DNA of 56,993 nt from a virus (Duplodnaviria; Caudoviricetes). A program made the translations under genes and the position numbers. The stretch lies in IMG/VR virus record IMGVR_UViG_3300030389_002895, positions 1-56,993 of that record. One strand, 5' to 3'. The first letter of the stretch is position 1, and each line of letters opens with the position of its first letter. Shown piece after piece: positions 4,765 through 35,001 of this stretch. A model generated the notes under the pieces. It was not told the DNA's origin, did not search any database, and saw only the letters and a list, made by a program, of their open reading frames with translations.

Positions 4765-5859
4765 TTATGTTTTAGATATACTTCTTGGGTCTTTACCAGG
4801 TCTCATTGCAGCTCTACCAAAACCACTTGCAGAACCACCACCAGACATTCTTAACATACCACCACGTTTCTTGTAGCCCATTTTGTTTCTTACAGCAGTA
4901 GGTAATTTACGTAAGCCTCTACCTTTAGCACCTGCAGGAGGTGTTTTTAAACCCCTTGTAGTTTTATCGGACTGCATTTCATCTATTTTTATAGAACCTC
5001 CTCTTTTTTTCTTAGGAAATACTTTTTTGCCTTTATCACGATACTCTTTAAGATAACCAGCCTCCTCTACTTCATCTTGTCTTCTTTTAATTTTTTTAAA
5101 ACTATCCCCCATTCTTTTTCTTAATTCACCTTTTAATGCTGGTAATTTAATTTTACCCTCATCGAATTTTTTTACTAAATCAGTTGCTTTCTCAGATAAA
5201 AAATCGGCTTTTGGGCCCTTTATTTTACTAAATAAAACATCAAAAGCATCTTTACCTGCTTTTGCACCTGCTTTTGCTATTGCAAATTTACCTTTGACAG
5301 CTTTCGTTACTTTACCACCTTTAACAAAAGCACCTAAAGTGTCGTAAGGAGGAAGATTTAGTTTAAAATCTTTTTTTACTGGTCTTTTAACTTCTTTTTT
5401 AGGACCTTGTGTTCCTTTTGTTCCTAAGTTAAGTCCTGCACCTGCTCTAATTTTATTAGGGTCTTTTAAACCAGGATTTAAAGCCATAAGTTTTGCAACA
5501 GTTGTTCCAGATTTTTTTGCTATACCTGATAAGGTATCACCCTTTTGAATTTTGTATGAACCTTTAGTTCTTGGATATACACCTGTTGCTTTTTTTGTCT
5601 TAGTTATATTTGCACCAAACCTATCTCCAACTTTTGCTGTGCTTTGTTTTTTGGATCTGTAAGGATTACCAGATGTGTCCATACCTGCTGGTGTAGTATT
5701 TCTGTCAAACATAGCTTTTCTTTTAGCTGCCTTTTTTTCTTTTACAGATTTCTGTGTCATTATTTTACCAGTAACAGTATTGGCTCCACCTCTACCTCTA
5801 GTTCCCTCTGGCTTAACACCCTGTGTTTTTAGATATTCTAAAACTTCTTGTATTTTCAT
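4765..5859 (-). CDS. Basic protein with LysM domain
   Basis: YKIQKGDTLSGIAKK...LMALNPGLKDPNKIRAG is a canonical LysM pattern. Confidence 0.8.
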   Translation of the reverse strand: MKIQEVLEYLKTQGVKPEGTRGRGGANTVTGKIMTQKSVKEKKAAKRKAMFDRNTTPAGMDTSGNPYRSKKQSTAKVGDRFGANITKTKKATGVYPRTKGSYKIQKGDTLSGIAKKSGTTVAKLMALNPGLKDPNKIRAGAGLNLGTKGTQGPKKEVKRPVKKDFKLNLPPYDTLGAFVKGGKVTKAVKGKFAIAKAGAKAGKDAFDVLFSKIKGPKADFLSEKATDLVKKFDEGKIKLPALKGELRKRMGDSFKKIKRRQDEVEEAGYLKEYRDKGKKVFPKKKRGGSIKIDEMQSDKTTRGLKTPPAGAKGRGLRKLPTAVRNKMGYKKRGGMLRMSGGGSASGFGRAAMRPGKDPRSISKT

Positions 5860-5868
5860 AGCTTTCTC

Positions 5869-6294
5869 CTAGTTAATATCAATCATACCACCATAGTATT
5901 TCTTTGTAAACGTACTCACGTTTGTTGGTTTACCACCAACTCCTTGAGCTTTAGCTCTTTTTCTTTTAACTGCACTTTTTCTTTGACCTTCGGACATTCT
6001 TCTAGCTTTTGCTAAAGGAACGCATTTAGGATATTTTCTTTTTGCATCTGCTTTTTGTTTACTTCTACCACATGGTGCAAATGAACCATCAGCTCTTTTA
6101 CTACCTATATCAACCCACTTTTGATTAAACCACTCTGTAAGTCCACCCTTTTTTTTCTTTAATGGTTTAACTCCTTGTTTCTTATTATATGCTTTTACTG
6201 CCTTATCAAAATCTTTTTGATTTTTAAATCCTTCAATCCTACCTAACATTGGATGTATAAAAAAAGCTTTTCCTGTTTTTTTATCAACAGGCAT
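5869..6294 (-). CDS. Basic conserved phage protein
   Basis: GLTEWF..KWVDI...CGRS...YPKCVP motif. Confidence 0.7.
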   Translation of the reverse strand: MPVDKKTGKAFFIHPMLGRIEGFKNQKDFDKAVKAYNKKQGVKPLKKKKGGLTEWFNQKWVDIGSKRADGSFAPCGRSKQKADAKRKYPKCVPLAKARRMSEGQRKSAVKRKRAKAQGVGGKPTNVSTFTKKYYGGMIDIN

Positions 6295-21612: not shown

Positions 21613-21656
21613 TTTTTCCTCCATTGGTTTTTGATTAATAATTAAACTTATATATA

Positions 21657-21916: not shown

Positions 21917-21997
21917 CTAGGTGAAAAAATATAAAAGGGCAAGAGTGCAGACTAAATATAGTCCACACTCTATGAAGAAAGATAAGTAGGCTAACAA
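21917..21997 (-). CDS. Possible 26-aa hydrophobic peptide (MLAYLSFFIECGLYLVCTLALLYFFT)
   Basis: TTG start overlapping upstream stop, with GGAGG about 9 nt before; overlaps a 12-bp hairpin at 21943-21970. Confidence 0.4.
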   Translation of the reverse strand: MLAYLSFFIECGLYLVCTLALLYFFT

Positions 21998-22584
21998 ATT
22001 TGAAAGCCTCCAGATTCACGACAGAAACGCATAAAGTTAATTACATTTTCTTCTGAAAATGGATAACTTGCTTCCCAATCATATTGATTTTGTATATCCT
22101 CCCATTGTTGTTTAAATGGTTCTGGATATTTAACAGGTGCTAGTTTTTGTCCTGTCTTATCCCACACAATCTTTTCGAGTTCATTTCTTTTTTTCTCAAG
22201 AACTTTATTTTTTGCACTTGCTCGTTTCATCTTCTCTTGATAAAAACCCTCAACTGTTTTTACTCTTTTTGTTTTTAGTTCTTGCTCAAGTCTATCAGCA
22301 ATTTTTCTAGCTTGTTCTTCGCTTACTTCATAGCCGTCATTGTGATGCCAACTTTTTTGCTCATCTTCTGTGAACTCATTTCCCATTAACTGCAAAACAT
22401 AATTTGCTAATGGTCTCCACCACCATACATTATTTCTAAAGTAATGACCTGGATTTTCTGTCTCAAACTTTGCCCTTGCTTTAAAATATTCGTCTTTTTC
22501 TTTATCGGTTGGTTTTTTATCCCAATCAATACTTGGTTCTTCTCCTTTTAGTTTTGGATTTTGTCCGTATAAATCAAATCCCAT
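21991..22584 (-). CDS. Conserved early phage protein
   Basis: MGFD.YG, YFRNNVWWWRPL, F..ENV..F..F...SGGF.IC motifs; start corrected to ATG after RBS. Confidence 0.8.
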   Translation of the reverse strand: MGFDLYGQNPKLKGEEPSIDWDKKPTDKEKDEYFKARAKFETENPGHYFRNNVWWWRPLANYVLQLMGNEFTEDEQKSWHHNDGYEVSEEQARKIADRLEQELKTKRVKTVEGFYQEKMKRASAKNKVLEKKRNELEKIVWDKTGQKLAPVKYPEPFKQQWEDIQNQYDWEASYPFSEENVINFMRFCRESGGFQIC

Positions 22585-22613
22585 TTTTACCTCCATTGGT
22601 TAGTTAAAATTAA

Positions 22614-23206: not shown

Positions 23207-23228
23207 TTTTTCCTCCATTGTTATTTAT

Positions 23229-23492: not shown

Positions 23493-23776
23493 TAGAACTG
23501 CCTAATGAGTACACGACCCTCAGGTAAATTAGCCACCCACGTCTTGCCCTCTAAATCGTCAAAGGTTTTTATATTATTATAATCTTCTTTGAGCTTGTCG
23601 AATGTCTCATACTCTGCATAGTCACAGCAAAACGAAACTGGATCATACTCAATGTCCGAGTCCATCTCCTCCTCCCACTCGAAGATTTGCTCCCAAGCCT
23701 CATAGCTAAACTGCTTCCAGCGTGAGTGCTGCCGCACCTGCTCCAAAAAATTTTGTTTGTTTAAAGTTATTTTCAT
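23492..23776 (-). CDS. Acidic early protein
   Basis: QFSYEA...IF.W...E.DP..FCCDY.EY motif; start corrected to ATG after RBS. Confidence 0.75.
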   Translation of the reverse strand: MKITLNKQNFLEQVRQHSRWKQFSYEAWEQIFEWEEEMDSDIEYDPVSFCCDYAEYETFDKLKEDYNNIKTFDDLEGKTWVANLPEGRVLIRQF

Positions 23777-23801
23777 AATTCTCTCCATTGGTTATCCTTT
23801 A

Positions 23802-23830
23802 TATATATACAGGATTTTACAGGAAGTCAA
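23802..23830 (-). promoter_or_regulatory. Sigma70-like early promoter
   Basis: TTGACT-17-TATATA. Confidence 0.65.
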
Positions 23831-24006: not shown

Positions 24007-24414
24007 TCATGCAGCACGGGCCTGTAGCCAGATTATAATCTCCTCAACGGGGGTGGGCATTTGGTTGGTGGGAACGGGAACGGGAACTCCGGGCTCACGA
24101 ATCTCGTATAGTTTGGCAGGTACGTGAAAGAGGGGCCAGTTCAAGATGTATGCAGCTCCACCAGCTTCTCTGTAGTTAAGATGCCAAGAGATTTGATATT
24201 TTGATATGTTCAAATTCTTAGCTTGATTAGCTTTCAACTCTAGCCAAAAAGATACACCTACATAACAACAATGAACATCAGGGATTCCGTTGATTGTAGA
24301 GCTTTCTATTTTAGTAAAATGTGCCTCAGATTTATCTTTTTGATACAGGTTAAGGTAATTCCAAATTTTTTTTTCAGTTAACCTTTTTAATTTTCTTTTT
24401 TTCTGGTGTGACAT
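24007..24414 (-). CDS. PD-(D/E)xK nuclease, VRR-NUC/Holliday junction resolvase-like
   Basis: IES...GIPDV...FWLELK...Q..WH motifs; start uncertain. Confidence 0.8.
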   Translation of the reverse strand: MSHQKKRKLKRLTEKKIWNYLNLYQKDKSEAHFTKIESSTINGIPDVHCCYVGVSFWLELKANQAKNLNISKYQISWHLNYREAGGAAYILNWPLFHVPAKLYEIREPGVPVPVPTNQMPTPVEEIIIWLQARAA

Positions 24415-24895
24415 CTATAATAGTACTCCCATCATCTATCTTTTTTTCTAATTCTTTTAATCTTTTTTCTAATTGTTCTCTACTCATACCTTCAAGAGTA
24501 CTATGTAAAACTTCTTTTTTTTCTACAAATTGTCCAGCTAATTGACCTGAACGAAACTCTGCTGCTATCGCACCTGTATACTGTCCTTTTGCTTCAGCAC
24601 CATCACGTAATCTTTCAAAAGTTTTATATCTTCTTAATTTATCTTTTTCATATTTTTCTTGTTCCTTACCAAGTTTGTGTTCAAGGTACCTACATACATG
24701 TGGGTTGTAATTTGGATTTGTAAGTTTACTAGCCATAACCATTGCAGCGTCTTTTGTTTTAGTTTTGTAACCAGCTTGTAACAACGCATCAGTTTTTGAT
24801 ATTTGTCCCCACTGGCTAACTAATATATCAATAAACTTTTTTTGCTTAACTGTTAAATCTTCAATTGTTCTTACTTGTTTACTTCGTTGTGGCAT
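24374..24895 (-). CDS. terS: Terminase small subunit (putative)
   Basis: LT.KQ.KF...A..AGY HTH-type N-terminus; AE..SGQ..G.F.EK C-terminus. Confidence 0.7.
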   Translation of the reverse strand: MPQRSKQVRTIEDLTVKQKKFIDILVSQWGQISKTDALLQAGYKTKTKDAAMVMASKLTNPNYNPHVCRYLEHKLGKEQEKYEKDKLRRYKTFERLRDGAEAKGQYTGAIAAEFRSGQLAGQFVEKKEVLHSTLEGMSREQLEKRLKELEKKIDDGSTIIDVTPEKKKIKKVN

Positions 24896-24955
24896 ATATA
24901 TCTCTATACAAAAAATATTTATTTTTTATTTTTTTCTGCAAAACAGTCCTCTCTT

Positions 24956-25046
24956 TTCCCAAAAAACAGGAAAAATTCCCAAAACTTTCCCAAAACTATT
25001 TCTCTGTAATACTATGTTTTCTCTTGTTTTTTCCATTTTCCCAAAA
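24956..25046 (+). repeat. Four TTCCCAAAA direct repeats in AT-rich intergenic DNA
   Basis: Copies start at 24956, 24976, 24987 and 25038. Confidence 0.8.
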
Positions 25047-25138
25047 CTTTTGCCTATTTTACACTTATGTTTTTAAAAAAAAGTTTGTATAGACATATAT
25101 AGTATTATAGTAAAATTATAAAAAAATACAAAATTTTA

Positions 25139-25167
25139 TTGACTTATCCTGTAAAATCTAATAATTT
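25139..25167 (+). promoter_or_regulatory. Plus-strand sigma70-like promoter with no downstream ORF
   Basis: TTGACT-17-TAATTT; spacer TATCCTGTAAAATC matches the promoters at 23802-23830 and 28065-28093. Confidence 0.65.
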
Positions 25168-25172
25168 AAATT

Positions 25173-25262
25173 AAGTTCGATTCACAAAATCGAGCCTCCA
25201 TTGGTGTGGGTATCTAATCTTACTCTTTTTTAACATACTGAATATAGTTCAGGTACCCACCA
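25173..25262 (+). ncRNA. Candidate anti-Shine-Dalgarno small RNA
   Basis: Promoter, 8-bp and 10-bp stems whose G-U pairs favour the plus strand, and single-stranded CCUCCAUUGGU between them. Confidence 0.55.
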
Positions 25263-25763
25263 TTAACTAACAATCACAGACACCAAAGCAACAGTAACAT
25301 AACAGTTACTTCCAAGAACAGCTTCTTTTCTACTTAATTTTAATTGTTTTTTCAAAGAACTTTTTTGAGAAACACTACAAGCTTTTTGCCATTTTTTTAA
25401 AAGTAAACTATATTTTTTCCATTTTACCTGACTTTGTTTAAAACGTATTTTATTTTTAAGTATAGCTTTTTTGTAAGCAGCTCTTACATCATCAGGATCT
25501 AACATAGCCCAATTACAAACCTGGTCAAAATCAGAACAAGCACTCATAATCCAGTTATGTGCAGCTCCTTTTAATACAGCAGACTTTCTGTCAACTCTTT
25601 CTATCATAGTATCTTCCAGGGCATTTATAACTACACCTCTCCACATATAATTTTCAGGCATCATATTATCGTGAGACAATAACATTCTTGAAAATCTATA
25701 TCCTAGTTTTTTTAAAAATTCTGTTGAGGGAGGTTGAAATTGTTGTTTAGTCGCCATTGACAA
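25263..25763 (-). CDS. Conserved hypothetical protein
   Basis: WRGV..NALED...A.NW......DF..VC..A.LDP motif. Confidence 0.7.
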   Translation of the reverse strand: MSMATKQQFQPPSTEFLKKLGYRFSRMLLSHDNMMPENYMWRGVVINALEDTMIERVDRKSAVLKGAAHNWIMSACSDFDQVCNWAMLDPDDVRAAYKKAILKNKIRFKQSQVKWKKYSLLLKKWQKACSVSQKSSLKKQLKLSRKEAVLGSNCYVTVALVSVIVS

Positions 25764-25977
25764 TCTTGAACTTTAAAATATTGTTTTTTCTTTTCCTTGT
25801 TCTAGGTTGAAAGATAGCATTGTCAAACTCAGCATCGTAGCCGTGATTGAATTCAAAATCATCTCTATATTTTAAAGAACGCATAACGCCAGTAACGTAG
25901 TTATAATCTTCATTGTTAAGATTATCCCTAAGTATTTCTAACGCTATGTAAAAATCTTTTTTGTTTCTGTCAGCCAT
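25747..25977 (-). CDS. Hypothetical protein
   Basis: 76 aa ORF with AGGA RBS. Confidence 0.6.
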   Translation of the reverse strand: MADRNKKDFYIALEILRDNLNNEDYNYVTGVMRSLKYRDDFEFNHGYDAEFDNAIFQPRTRKRKNNILKFKIVNGD

Positions 25978-26053
25978 AAATATCCTAATGATGATAACAA
26001 ATGATCCATGGCTCGTGTTTCTTGTATCTAATTTAACAAATCAAAATATTTTT

Positions 26054-26275
26054 TCAACCTCTAATACTATCCCCTTCTTCTTTAGACTTTTGTATCATCT
26101 GGTCTTTAAATTTTGTTACACCGACCCTTCTTTGTTTTGCTACAGATTCAATGTAATCGTTTATGAGCATAGTAAGTGTACCTGTAAATTTTCTTTGCTG
26201 CAGGAATGATACCCCACGTACTGCGTGATAATCATTTATGTTTAAAGTTATGCTCTTCCATTTAGTTTTGTCCAT
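26054..26275 (-). CDS. Putative ribbon-helix-helix-like DNA-binding protein
   Basis: MDKTKWKSITL beta-strand-like start then helices; AGGAGG RBS; fold is inferred. Confidence 0.5.
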   Translation of the reverse strand: MDKTKWKSITLNINDYHAVRGVSFLQQRKFTGTLTMLINDYIESVAKQRRVGVTKFKDQMIQKSKEEGDSIRG

Positions 26276-26289
26276 AATACCTCCTATAG

Positions 26290-27123
26290 TTAATCGTGAC
26301 AAAAACACACGTCATCAGACTTATCAAAATCAAATAAATCTAACTGGCTTTTACTTATATCCAACAGCGTTTTGTAATCTGCTCTATCGTGTCGAAAAAC
26401 AAAACCATCTTTAGATTTATCACCTAATTGTTTCTTTTCTTGGTCTATCCACCATTGTGCTTTCTCTGGATAGTTTTTCATTATATTCATAATGGTGTTC
26501 TTACCCTTCAAGAAACATAAATCACAATTACCAAGTGGTGTCTTACCTTTAATACCTGGTAATCGTAAATCAAAGTCACAGTTCTCCCAAAATTTTGCTA
26601 CATCTCTAACTGTTTTCTTTGCCCCATGTAGAGGTGCTTCACTCTCCCACCTCTCTTTATCTTTTGCTCTTAATAATCTAGCTACCCTATGTGGTTCATC
26701 ATAACGCAAACCAACATAGTTAAACCAGCTTTTGTGTCCTCTTGCCATCATAAATTCTTTCATAGGTCTTATCTTTAATTCTGATGTGCAATATCTTGTT
26801 ACTGGATTTGGTAAAAATTTTCTTTTGTTTATTAGTTTATCGTAAGGCTCCCCGTTTCGTGATGCGGAGTTATGGTTTACTTCTACAATCTTTTTCTCTT
26901 CATCCCACTCAATCCAATGGATTTTTACATCCCAGTTGACTGCACAATCACGTACAAAATCTAAAGTAGCATCCATTTCTTTACCGGTATTTGCAAAAAC
27001 TACATAGAGCTGCTCGGGTAGTTTGTCATCAAAATGGTCTAGTATTTCACGTAACATAAAGCCAGAGGTTCGCCCCCCTGAGAAACTTAATAGACCAGGT
27101 GTTCGTATGTTATATAAACTCAT
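26290..27123 (-). CDS. PAPS reductase-family (adenine nucleotide alpha hydrolase, PP-loop) protein
   Basis: SFSGGRTS, FANTGKE, RYCTSELK, VGLRYDE, GNCDLCFLKG and C-terminal CFCHD. Confidence 0.85.
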   Translation of the reverse strand: MSLYNIRTPGLLSFSGGRTSGFMLREILDHFDDKLPEQLYVVFANTGKEMDATLDFVRDCAVNWDVKIHWIEWDEEKKIVEVNHNSASRNGEPYDKLINKRKFLPNPVTRYCTSELKIRPMKEFMMARGHKSWFNYVGLRYDEPHRVARLLRAKDKERWESEAPLHGAKKTVRDVAKFWENCDFDLRLPGIKGKTPLGNCDLCFLKGKNTIMNIMKNYPEKAQWWIDQEKKQLGDKSKDGFVFRHDRADYKTLLDISKSQLDLFDFDKSDDVCFCHD

Positions 27124-34390: not shown

Positions 34391-34973
34391 CGTTTTTTCC
34401 TTTCTCAATTTTTGTTTCGGTTTTCAAAAATACTTTAAATAAATCATCTTCAAATGGTAAGTTCTTTTCTTTCACTGCTCTTATGTGTGCGTTCAAAGAA
34501 TTTGCATTTACGGATTCATTTAAAGTTGGAGTGAGTCCTCTCTCTTCTAGCTCAGCTTTCAAAGCTTTCGCTTCATTGTCTTGACCTTTGCTAAAAGGAA
34601 CAGATAACTCGTTCTTCACTAAAGACCTATGACCCTCATCATTACTTAAATACTGTAAGCATTTTTCTCTTCGGTCGGCTAGTTCTTTATCTTTAAGACA
34701 AGCTTTTATAGTAGGTATGTAACCAGTATAAAAACTTTTTATCTTAATCTTATCACCCTTATCAGTAACAAATTCCTGCATACCAATATCTTTCATTTTG
34801 GTAGGAATGTCTACTTCTGATAATTGTCTTTGAGTTGCTTTCAGAGCCGCAAGAGCTGACATTAAATCTTCGATAGCCTTTTCATTCTTCAGCATATCTT
34901 CAACTAATTGACTTAACTCTTTTAGTTGGTCGTCTCCAAAATTCATTTCGATCTTTACTTCTTCTTGATTCAT
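34383..34973 (-). CDS. Conserved replication-module protein
   Basis: LSE..IP..M...G, VKNE..V.F.KGQD and V....L.A motifs; start corrected. Confidence 0.7.
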   Translation of the reverse strand: MNQEEVKIEMNFGDDQLKELSQLVEDMLKNEKAIEDLMSALAALKATQRQLSEVDIPTKMKDIGMQEFVTDKGDKIKIKSFYTGYIPTIKACLKDKELADRREKCLQYLSNDEGHRSLVKNELSVPFSKGQDNEAKALKAELEERGLTPTLNESVNANSLNAHIRAVKEKNLPFEDDLFKVFLKTETKIEKGKNDE

Positions 34974-35001
34974 GTTTTCCTCCATTAAAAATAACAAGTT
35001 A

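Follow-up and report, generated by a model that had tools for sequence, protein, structure and literature searches.

The DNA considered here, termed the window, is the whole IMG/VR record IMGVR_UViG_3300030389_002895 (56,993 bp, with an estimated completeness of about 95%), and the element in question is a short unit on its plus strand, located in a 367-bp gap (24896-25262) upstream of a terS-like gene. The G+C content of the window is 30-37%, and nearly all open reading frames (ORFs) of at least 100 amino acids (aa) are encoded on the minus strand. The large terminase shows 72.8% identity to that of Pelagibacter phage HTVC023P, and the TerS-like protein 56.4% identity to the annotated TerS of this phage. 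Because of these two identities the window is assigned, by sequence, to an uncultured HTVC023P-type pelagiphage, the host bacterium of which is then a member of SAR11. The original prediction, made from the letters of the window, had proposed that the gap encodes a small RNA (sRNA) complementary to a ribosome-binding site (RBS) common to several early genes. The two genes bordering the gap and the parts of the unit are the following:

24374-24895, minus strand: terS-like gene, downstream of the gap (PHROG 641, E 5.6e-05; Pfam Terminase_2 under the cut-off)
25139-25167, plus strand: sigma70-like promoter with -35 TTGACT (25139-25144), a spacer of 17 nucleotides (nt) and -10 TAATTT (25162-25167)
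25175-25195, plus strand: 5' hairpin of the minimum free energy (MFE) fold, 25175-25182 paired with 25188-25195 (8 bp including one U.G, 5-nt loop)
25195-25205, plus strand: linker, or seed, CCTCCATTGGT (11 nt), the complement of the RBS tag ACCAATGGAGG
25206-25260, plus strand: 3' hairpin in its long form, 25206-25215 paired with 25251-25260 (10 bp including one U.G, 35-nt loop)
25226-25231, plus strand: U6 run in the loop of the 3' hairpin, a candidate alternative 3' end
25263-25763, minus strand: 166-aa gene without assigned family, upstream of the gap and convergent with the unit

Promoter, both stems and the 11-nt linker, which the original prediction had described at these positions, were all confirmed in the sequence. 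Judged by the distance to the -10 hexamer, transcription is predicted to start at about 25174-25176. RNAfold returned for the plus strand of 25175-25262 the same architecture that had been drawn before (MFE -23.0 kcal/mol versus -12.95 +/- 2.75 kcal/mol for shuffled sequences; z = -3.65; none of 200 shuffles was as good). Apart from C25195, which closes the 5' hairpin, the linker has no pairs in either the MFE or the centroid fold, and the 3' hairpin was also found as an inverted repeat. In agreement with the claim that no plus-strand ORF follows the promoter, none of at least 30 aa starts downstream of it inside the element. The stop codon of the convergent 166-aa gene (25263-25265), the last gene after a block encoding PolA and a PAPS-reductase-like protein, lies 3 nt past the 3' hairpin. 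A transcript ending at the U6 run would be about 57 nt long and would terminate behind a weak 5-bp hairpin. The U6 region resembles the 3' half and the U-run of a terminator hairpin present in two related loci, L002 and L003; in the window, the 5' half of such a hairpin seems to be lost, with the 3' half and the U6 run staying inside a new, longer stem.

Relatives were collected with the terS-like gene (24374-24895) as anchor, and the TerS search of viral and metagenome contigs yielded 48 and 46 loci, respectively. The element, whose absence from relatives had been named as an argument against the sRNA, is kept in all 20 distinct terS-upstream regions with a TerS of at least 81% identity and occurs in none of the 36 more distant ones. 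Over some 200 nt adjacent to terS, the members of this clade are well conserved, and the stretch that contains the unit is much more variable. On the strand opposite the genes, the units have a common architecture, in which TTGACT, 17 nt and TA.TT. are followed by two hairpins separated by an unpaired linker. The core of this linker is UCCGUU, with the variants UCCAUU (window and L210-L212) and UUCGUU (L014). None of the 19 distinct units deviates from TTGACT, from the 17-nt spacing or from TA.TT., which fixes four of the six -10 positions; the spacer sequence itself varies, and the 5' hairpin starts 4-8 nt past the -10 hexamer. By computation, the predicted RNA thus has a promoter of its own directly upstream, as expected of trans-acting sRNAs. 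As a control served 114 unrelated viral contigs from a loose collection scan for the bare pattern TTGACTT..TCCGTT..TTTTTT, which had returned almost nothing else; two hairpins with a free linker were found in only three of these contigs, and in a weaker form.

Farther relatives have either no gap or a protein gene on the antisense strand at the place of the unit, as is the case in HTVC023P (gp20). This antisense gene, found in L025-L031, L037, L047 and the HTVC023P locus L091 (1922-2320), has a sigma70-like promoter and a terminator composed of a hairpin and a U-run; the latter weakly matches the covariance models of the unit described below (20.8-27.8 bits). A blastn search of GenBank phages with 24300-26300 of the window gave no match. 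A further observation concerns the coding strand opposite the -35 hexamer. In 16 of 17 relatives, a Shine-Dalgarno (SD) sequence (AGGAG or AGGAT) and an ATG overlap this hexamer and are followed by an open ORF of 24-77 aa. This small sense ORF (start AAGTCAA..ATG; e.g. in the region 2757-2873 of L008) often ends in ...FFKNISVK, and its reading frame moves relative to the conserved DNA as a T-run changes in length. It does not occur in the window, where ATA replaces ATG (25110-25150). With its variable length of 24-77 aa, its shifting frame and its absence from the window, the small ORF was rejected as an explanation of the unit.

The linker matches a word that precedes a few genes of the window as part of their RBS. 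As had been claimed, it is the exact complement of the sites before 21612 and 22584, with near matches before 23776 and 23206 and a shorter one before 34973; the match is perfect over 11 nt at the former two sites and extends over 10 of 11 nt at the next two. The tagged genes, with predicted duplex energies, are:

22590-22600, minus strand: tag ACCAATGGAGG of a 197-aa gene (start 22584), exact complement of the linker and best predicted target (-22.3 kcal/mol)
21618-21628, minus strand: tag ACCAATGGAGG of a 110-aa gene (TTG start 21612), exact complement (-20.6 kcal/mol)
23782-23792, minus strand: tag ACCAATGGAGA of a 94-aa gene (start 23776) with its own promoter, TTGACT at 23830-23825 (-17.5 kcal/mol)
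23212-23222, minus strand: tag AACAATGGAGG of a 64-aa gene (start 23206) with its own promoter, TTGACT at 23256-23251 (-16.1 kcal/mol)
34979-34986, minus strand: shorter tag AATGGAGG of a 196-aa gene (start 34973), a weaker candidate target (-14.0 kcal/mol)

When at most one mismatch is allowed, ACCAATGGAGG occurs five times in the window, in all cases on the minus strand (21618, 22590, 23212, 23782 and 25195), compared with a mean of 0.65 in shuffled sequences, none of 100 of which reached five. The shorter word AATGGAGG has six copies, including 34979, again all on the minus strand, a number likewise reached by none of 100 shuffles. Since all five copies of the longer word lie on one strand, the exact complementarity of the linker is the same fact as the presence of a fifth same-sense copy of the motif in the gap. 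A tag is positioned 5-7 nt upstream of the start in 4-6 of the 77-78 predicted genes, and its shorter form precedes the starts 34973 and 27870. The structural genes of the window use plain AGGAG or GGAGG sites, and the statement that late genes have AGGAG-type RBSs holds. Duplex prediction of the linker with 78 leaders ranked the four genes with a full tag first. Ordinary GGAGG sites follow at about -14 kcal/mol, and the gene at 34973 (-14.0 kcal/mol) falls inside their range. Altogether, seven of the 78 leaders reached -14 kcal/mol or lower, whereas none of 200 shuffled linkers attained this number.

The four genes with a full tag occupy the interval from terS to terL. Each has a sigma70-like promoter of its own, which precedes the tag by 35-45 nt. 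Three minus-strand promoters (-35 at 23830, 23256 and 28093) belong to a family with a shared spacer word (TTGAC[T/A]-TATCCG.TAAA...-TATAAT-like); related sites are also present upstream of 22584 and 21612, and one member of the family lies after polA. The leaders behind the shared-spacer promoters are about 20-30 nt long, and relatives have the same promoters at the orthologous tagged genes. The -35 hexamer and much of the spacer are common to the promoter of the unit and that of the tagged gene at 23776 (-35 at 23830).

The match between linker and tags is maintained across genomes. In relatives, the orthologous small genes carry AACGGAG, compared with AATGGAG in the window, and the units of these relatives match with UCCGUU. 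The claim that the match extends beyond the SD core was borne out, as the 3-4 nt 5' of the core also track the tag of each genome: L005, L008 and their tags have ACT-, L012-L014 have TTA-, and the window and L210-L212 have ACC-. When the linkers of 11 genomes were compared with their own and with foreign RBS sets, the mean run of pairing was 9.97 versus 8.37 nt and the mean energy -14.9 versus -12.4 kcal/mol; among 20000 permutations of linkers and RBSs, none reached the observed run length and one the observed energy. Two units deviate from their tags in a way that keeps pairing as G.U: in L014, the unit has AACGAAG and the tags AACGGAG, with the G.U formed in the RNA duplex, and in L011, the unit has AACGGAT and the tags AATGGAGG.

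Unit and tag also occur together. The 15 unit-bearing loci (93,359 nt) contain 57 tagged RBSs, a count that includes related loci and one site in L010 that is the unit itself, and the 19 unit-lacking loci (133,876 nt) contain 5. Orthologues of the 197-aa gene have AAYGGAG tags in the clade and untagged RBSs in three of three unit-lacking relatives (L015, L021 and L091). Clade members without the upstream region on their locus (L036, L038-L040, L044, L048, L050, L054, L208, L221, L222 and L247) were excluded. Covariation of the linker with the RBSs of the putatively early genes, which had been proposed as a check on the sRNA, is thus seen both in linkers that follow the tag of their genome and in unit-lacking relatives that are devoid of the tag.

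The fold of the unit is conserved, and its sequence changes in a compensatory manner. All 14 units tested fold into a hairpin, an unpaired linker and a hairpin, with z between -3.65 and -7.38 and none of 200 shuffles as good for any of them; L002 and L046 form three weak pairs in the linker, the core of which stays unpaired. The 3' hairpin of L210-L212 is a compact form of 8-10 bp with the same GTGGGT...ACCCAC ends as in the window. Compensatory double changes distinguish the window from L210 in the 5' hairpin, and L002 from L003 and L012 from L245 in the 3' hairpin, and in the 5' hairpin of L210/L211 a G-C pair is replaced by A-U with the U.G kept. An alignment of all units with MAFFT was not usable, the stems differing too much between groups; covariance models were therefore built from one group and iterated (R1, seeded on this group, and then R2). 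R1 found the units of three other groups on the correct strand (E 1e-7 to 2e-4), and R2 with filters off scored 27.1 bits for L245, 22.7 for L012, 18.8 for L014 and 13.8 for L005. In an alignment of nine sequences, 93.9% of the cells pair versus 79.8% in shuffles, and changes on both sides were seen for 14 of 19 pairs (5.5 in shuffles); none of 500 shuffles reached either value, and slid controls were paired to 36-62%. The stems hence covary in relatives, downstream of a promoter whose hexamers and spacing do not change. Both models also gave 24-30 bits for 21932-22011 of the window (minus strand), a pair of neighbouring hairpins where the 197-aa gene ends. This site has no linker motif and lies at a gene end; it was judged unrelated to the unit and may be a terminator-like structure of the coding strand.

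Several features distinguish the two strands. In 10 of 14 units, the complement folds less stably than the plus-sense RNA, with differences of up to 13.6 kcal/mol; in the remaining four it has a slight advantage of 0.9-3.1 kcal/mol. A count over redundant ordered pairs gave 28 one-sided changes compatible with pairing on this strand and 8 on the other, and 30 versus 40 broken pairs. In L046, L008 and L014, one-sided changes keep a G.U on the plus strand and give C.A on the other strand. A U-run of at least five after the 3' hairpin, read by eye from the sequences, is present in 9 of 19 units, and one unit (L007) has four U.

These data suggest, at about even confidence, that the plus strand of the terS-upstream gap encodes a small anti-RBS RNA acting on the tagged mRNAs of the phage. 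Host RNA polymerase would transcribe the plus strand from TTGACT-17-TAATTT, yielding an RNA of about 60-90 nt, depending on where its 3' end lies, that comprises the 5' hairpin, a linker of about 10 nt with an anti-SD core, and the 3' hairpin. In the infected cell, the linker would pair with the extended tag, i.e. AAYGGAG and 3-4 nt on its 5' side. This tag opens the very short leaders of a few small genes with their own promoters (22584, 21612, 23776 and 23206), and since the leaders are so short, pairing would cover both their 5' end and the SD. Hiding the SD would block binding of the 30S subunit; with initiation prevented in this manner, a single RNA would turn down the tagged set of the phage's own mRNAs. 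The unit probably represents a new family of phage sRNAs with an anti-RBS seed, of a mechanistic kind that is already known.

More tentatively, and with somewhat less than even confidence, the RNA, carried by a clade of the most abundant pelagiphage type in the ocean, can be regarded as the counterpart of a translational repressor, in which the seed would carry an "address" base facing the C/U 5' of GGAG. Seed and tags would co-evolve, and G.U wobble would buffer transitions. With a seed that would differ from an ordinary anti-SD sequence at the address base and co-evolve with the tags, the phage could first pulse and then silence one class of its mRNAs and leave other translation untouched. 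SAR11 hosts are noted for sparse regulation. If the proposal is true, the RNA would be the first post-transcriptional regulator proposed for a pelagiphage, the promoter-proximal small tagged genes would constitute one regulon, and the unit would offer a compact and testable model of tag/anti-tag co-evolution. The only transcriptome for this phage type is that of HTVC027P, a distant relative; according to the passages available from that study, all early genes are of unknown function, and the temporal classes are interleaved along the genome as a mosaic (PMC12753301).

A number of points weigh against an anti-RBS sRNA, most of them concerning the copy in the window. No U-run follows its 3' hairpin, which is equally the case in L210-L212, the L012-L014 group and L005 (9 of 19 units in total). 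The minus strand of the window copy folds as well as the plus strand (-22.9 versus -23.0 kcal/mol; z = -2.93); the original argument that G-U pairs restrict the fold to the plus strand therefore does not decide the strand in the window, but gains support from relatives, where the wobble changes favour the plus strand. The promoter as such is not above chance, with 12 sites in a consensus scan versus 10.2 +/- 3.2 expected, and it is missing from the list of that scan because its -10 TAATTT matches the consensus at only three of six positions. Under default filters, the window unit was missed by R1 and R2. With R2 and filters off, it scored 8.5 bits (E 0.31 in 701 nt), aligned at 25172-25232 as a short form ending on U6, and L210 scored 15.6 bits; in view of this low score, the homology of the window copy rests on synteny, promoter and layout. 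Further points apply to the comparison as a whole. The nine-sequence alignment used for covariation was fitted to the covariance model and leans towards it, and the coding-strand SD and ATG over the -35 hexamer in 16 of 17 relatives could add to conservation there. L011 mixes a linker of the L008 type with tags of the window type. At the level of the clade, the co-occurrence of unit and tag may amount to a single evolutionary event, and co-variation and co-occurrence would also be expected from one factor reading the sense motif or from gene conversion among copies. No cultured phage with the unit was found, the TerS tblastn search having matched three records, all without it, and no RNA run is on record among the 20 listed sequencing runs that hold the region. 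The overall reading of the original prediction was in sum partly supported, by the comparative tests, and the window copy has no canonical terminator.

The main rival is an element acting on the sense strand, an improbable explanation. Read-through RNA of the coding strand would expose an orphan RBS-like tag between the hairpins. This tag would be a decoy or a standby site, or it would be bound by a protein or RNA of phage or host origin that also recognizes the tags of the small genes. Since every copy of the tag lies on one strand, i.e. all five motif copies on the coding strand, the co-variation and co-occurrence described above are compatible with this explanation, and a shared reader indeed predicts both for identical sense motifs. 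The hairpins fold on both strands, with the sense strand slightly more stable in 4 of 14 units, and the authors who described the start-associated sequence (SAS) of mycobacteriophages left open, in the passages concerned, whether a protein or an RNA reads it. However, a sense-strand element explains neither the invariant TTGACT-17-TA.TT. on the opposite strand nor the U-runs of that strand in 9 of 19 units, and the changes that preserve G.U in L046, L008 and L014 are C.A mismatches on the sense strand. As an SD, moreover, the motif of the unit is degraded to GGAT in L005, L008 and L011 and to GAAG in L014, and no candidate factor has been identified. A further, likewise unlikely, possibility is that the unit insulates modules. 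A short RNA would form a duplex with read-through transcripts of the replication module, or the site would support termination or processing at the boundary, and the likeness of linker and tag would have no function in trans. The unit is placed exactly where the replication genes meet the terS-terL block, its 3' hairpin abuts the stop codon of the convergent gene, transcription from units without a U-run would continue antisense into that gene, and HTVC023P-like relatives have at the same place the antisense-strand protein gene with its own promoter and terminator. Insulation does not account for the unpaired linker being the best-conserved part of the RNA, for its tracking of the genome's tag including the flanking bases, or for the co-occurrence of tag and unit. 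A cis-antisense RNA of the OOP/sar type in the strict sense was rejected, as the 88-nt unit (25175-25262) ends before the stop codon at 25263-25265 and faces no ORF, read-through being possible where the U-run is lacking.

Two other explanations can largely be set aside. The motif could be a relic, i.e. the RBS of a deleted or decayed minus-strand gene, as the original prediction had itself considered, with plus-strand promoter and stems arising by chance. In the window, the motif is followed by a frame of 4 codons starting with GTG and by one of 11 codons whose ATG lies inside the motif; a 57-aa frame follows it in L010 alone, and the promoter by itself is not above chance. This explanation is nevertheless very improbable, because the motif is conserved between two hairpins that undergo sequence turnover and no conserved ORF follows it; all 20 clade members retain motif, hairpins and opposite-strand promoter, with replacement of the hairpin sequences, and the layout was seen in only 3 of 114 pattern-matched control loci. 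Hardly credible is a degenerate SAM-V riboswitch on the minus strand (25267-25220), just after the 166-aa gene. The Rfam model SAM_V (RF01826) gave 29.6 bits (E 0.003) in a search of 171-221 nt, and this riboswitch class has been described in Pelagibacter, as far as the source passages go. The score is, however, below the gathering score of 41, and only 8 nt stand in for the 26 model positions of the inner hairpin. For a search space of the whole window, the E-value would be near 1, and a whole-window scan at the gathering score was empty. The syntenic stretch of HTVC023P gave no match, 20 related loci gave none at the gathering score, and no gene start follows. With a sub-threshold score and an incomplete aptamer, assignment to SAM-V was rejected, and the match was judged to be chance or a remnant.

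The remainder of the gap shows further features. An 18-nt inverted repeat (24895-24912 and 25084-25101, 94% complementary) just upstream of the terS start encloses four direct repeats of the GTTTTGGGAA type (24954-25050, minus-strand reading). The repeat block is kept in relatives with a word that varies by lineage, TTTTAGGAA or AACTAGGAA in farther relatives and HTVC023P, and may be a binding array for packaging or for a regulator. On the coding strand, the word TGGTGGGTACC follows the last gene before the gap both in the window (25252-25262) and in HTVC023P (L091, about 1690-1702). It forms the 3' arm of the long hairpin of the window, and the remaining gap differs between the two phages. 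The possibility that GGTACCCACCA at 25252-25262 represents an attP site or a tRNA end was considered and dropped. No tRNA or tmRNA was found in the window. In HTVC027P (L092), 5754-5874 on the minus strand of the locus match the Rfam family Flavobacterium-1 RNA (RF02976; 90.2 bits, E 1e-15). This strong match, in the gp34-gp35 gap close to the terS region, is a different non-coding RNA in the same phage type.

Searches of Rfam gave no match at the gathering score, and at E up to 1 only SAM_V and mir-889, both sub-threshold. Phage-encoded sRNAs that act in trans at the post-transcriptional level have been reported; in the passages available, these come from enterobacterial or vibrio systems, none from a pelagiphage, and have experimental support (10.1101/2024.10.31.621285; PMC12197685). 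A full-text literature search found no paper combining "pelagiphage" and "sRNA", and the passages searched in some of the papers mentioning HTVC023P contain neither promoter, antisense, non-coding/noncoding nor small RNA. Among regulators of related logic, AbcR is an alphaproteobacterial sRNA with an anti-SD motif. The c4 RNA of P1/P7, sar of P22 and OOP of lambda are short phage RNAs with exposed bases that pair with the RBS region of a phage mRNA. They belong to lysogeny or immunity circuits and have one target each; sar and OOP are encoded in cis opposite the target, and c4, which is processed from the same operon, acts via short complementary patches on a transcript made elsewhere. In contrast, the unit has its own promoter, lies in a gap without an opposite gene and matches at least four separately transcribed genes. 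In this respect it resembles T4 RegA, a protein that acts at the initiation regions of several early mRNAs of its own phage and represses their translation. The logic of one phage product and many own mRNAs is the same, with the difference that the proposed effector here is an RNA, whose Watson-Crick addressing can co-evolve with the tags.

Among RNAs of alphaproteobacteria, the cuckoo (RSs0680) family resembles the unit in form. The passages available describe 2-4 adjacent hairpins with highly variable stems, each with CCUCCUCCC in its loop (PMC4615179). Adjacent hairpins, variable stems, a conserved C-rich motif resembling an anti-SD sequence, presumed pairing with RBSs and an alphaproteobacterial host setting are, on that description, common to both (PMC4615179). 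In contrast to cuckoo as described there, the motif of the unit (CCUCCAUUGG or UCCGUU) is single and located in the linker between the hairpins, not in each loop; the unit is furthermore encoded by a phage, with the phage's own genes as best targets. Membership in the cuckoo family was rejected on account of the position of the motif between the hairpins, its other sequence and the missing Rfam match at the gathering score. As for the RBS tag, the SAS of Cluster K mycobacteriophages is described, in the passages available, as an asymmetric conserved motif that includes the SD core, precedes the start codons of some non-structural genes by a few bases and almost always has the same orientation, and its authors left open whether the reader is an RNA or a protein (PMC3203893). 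The tag likewise has an SD core, one orientation and a restricted gene subset, which is a likeness of kind and not homology, since sequence, phage group and host differ. Unlike SAS, for which no partner RNA is reported in those passages (PMC3203893), the tag has a complementary candidate partner RNA in the same genomes, and the unit may in this way bear on what reads the start-associated sequences in some mycobacteriophages.

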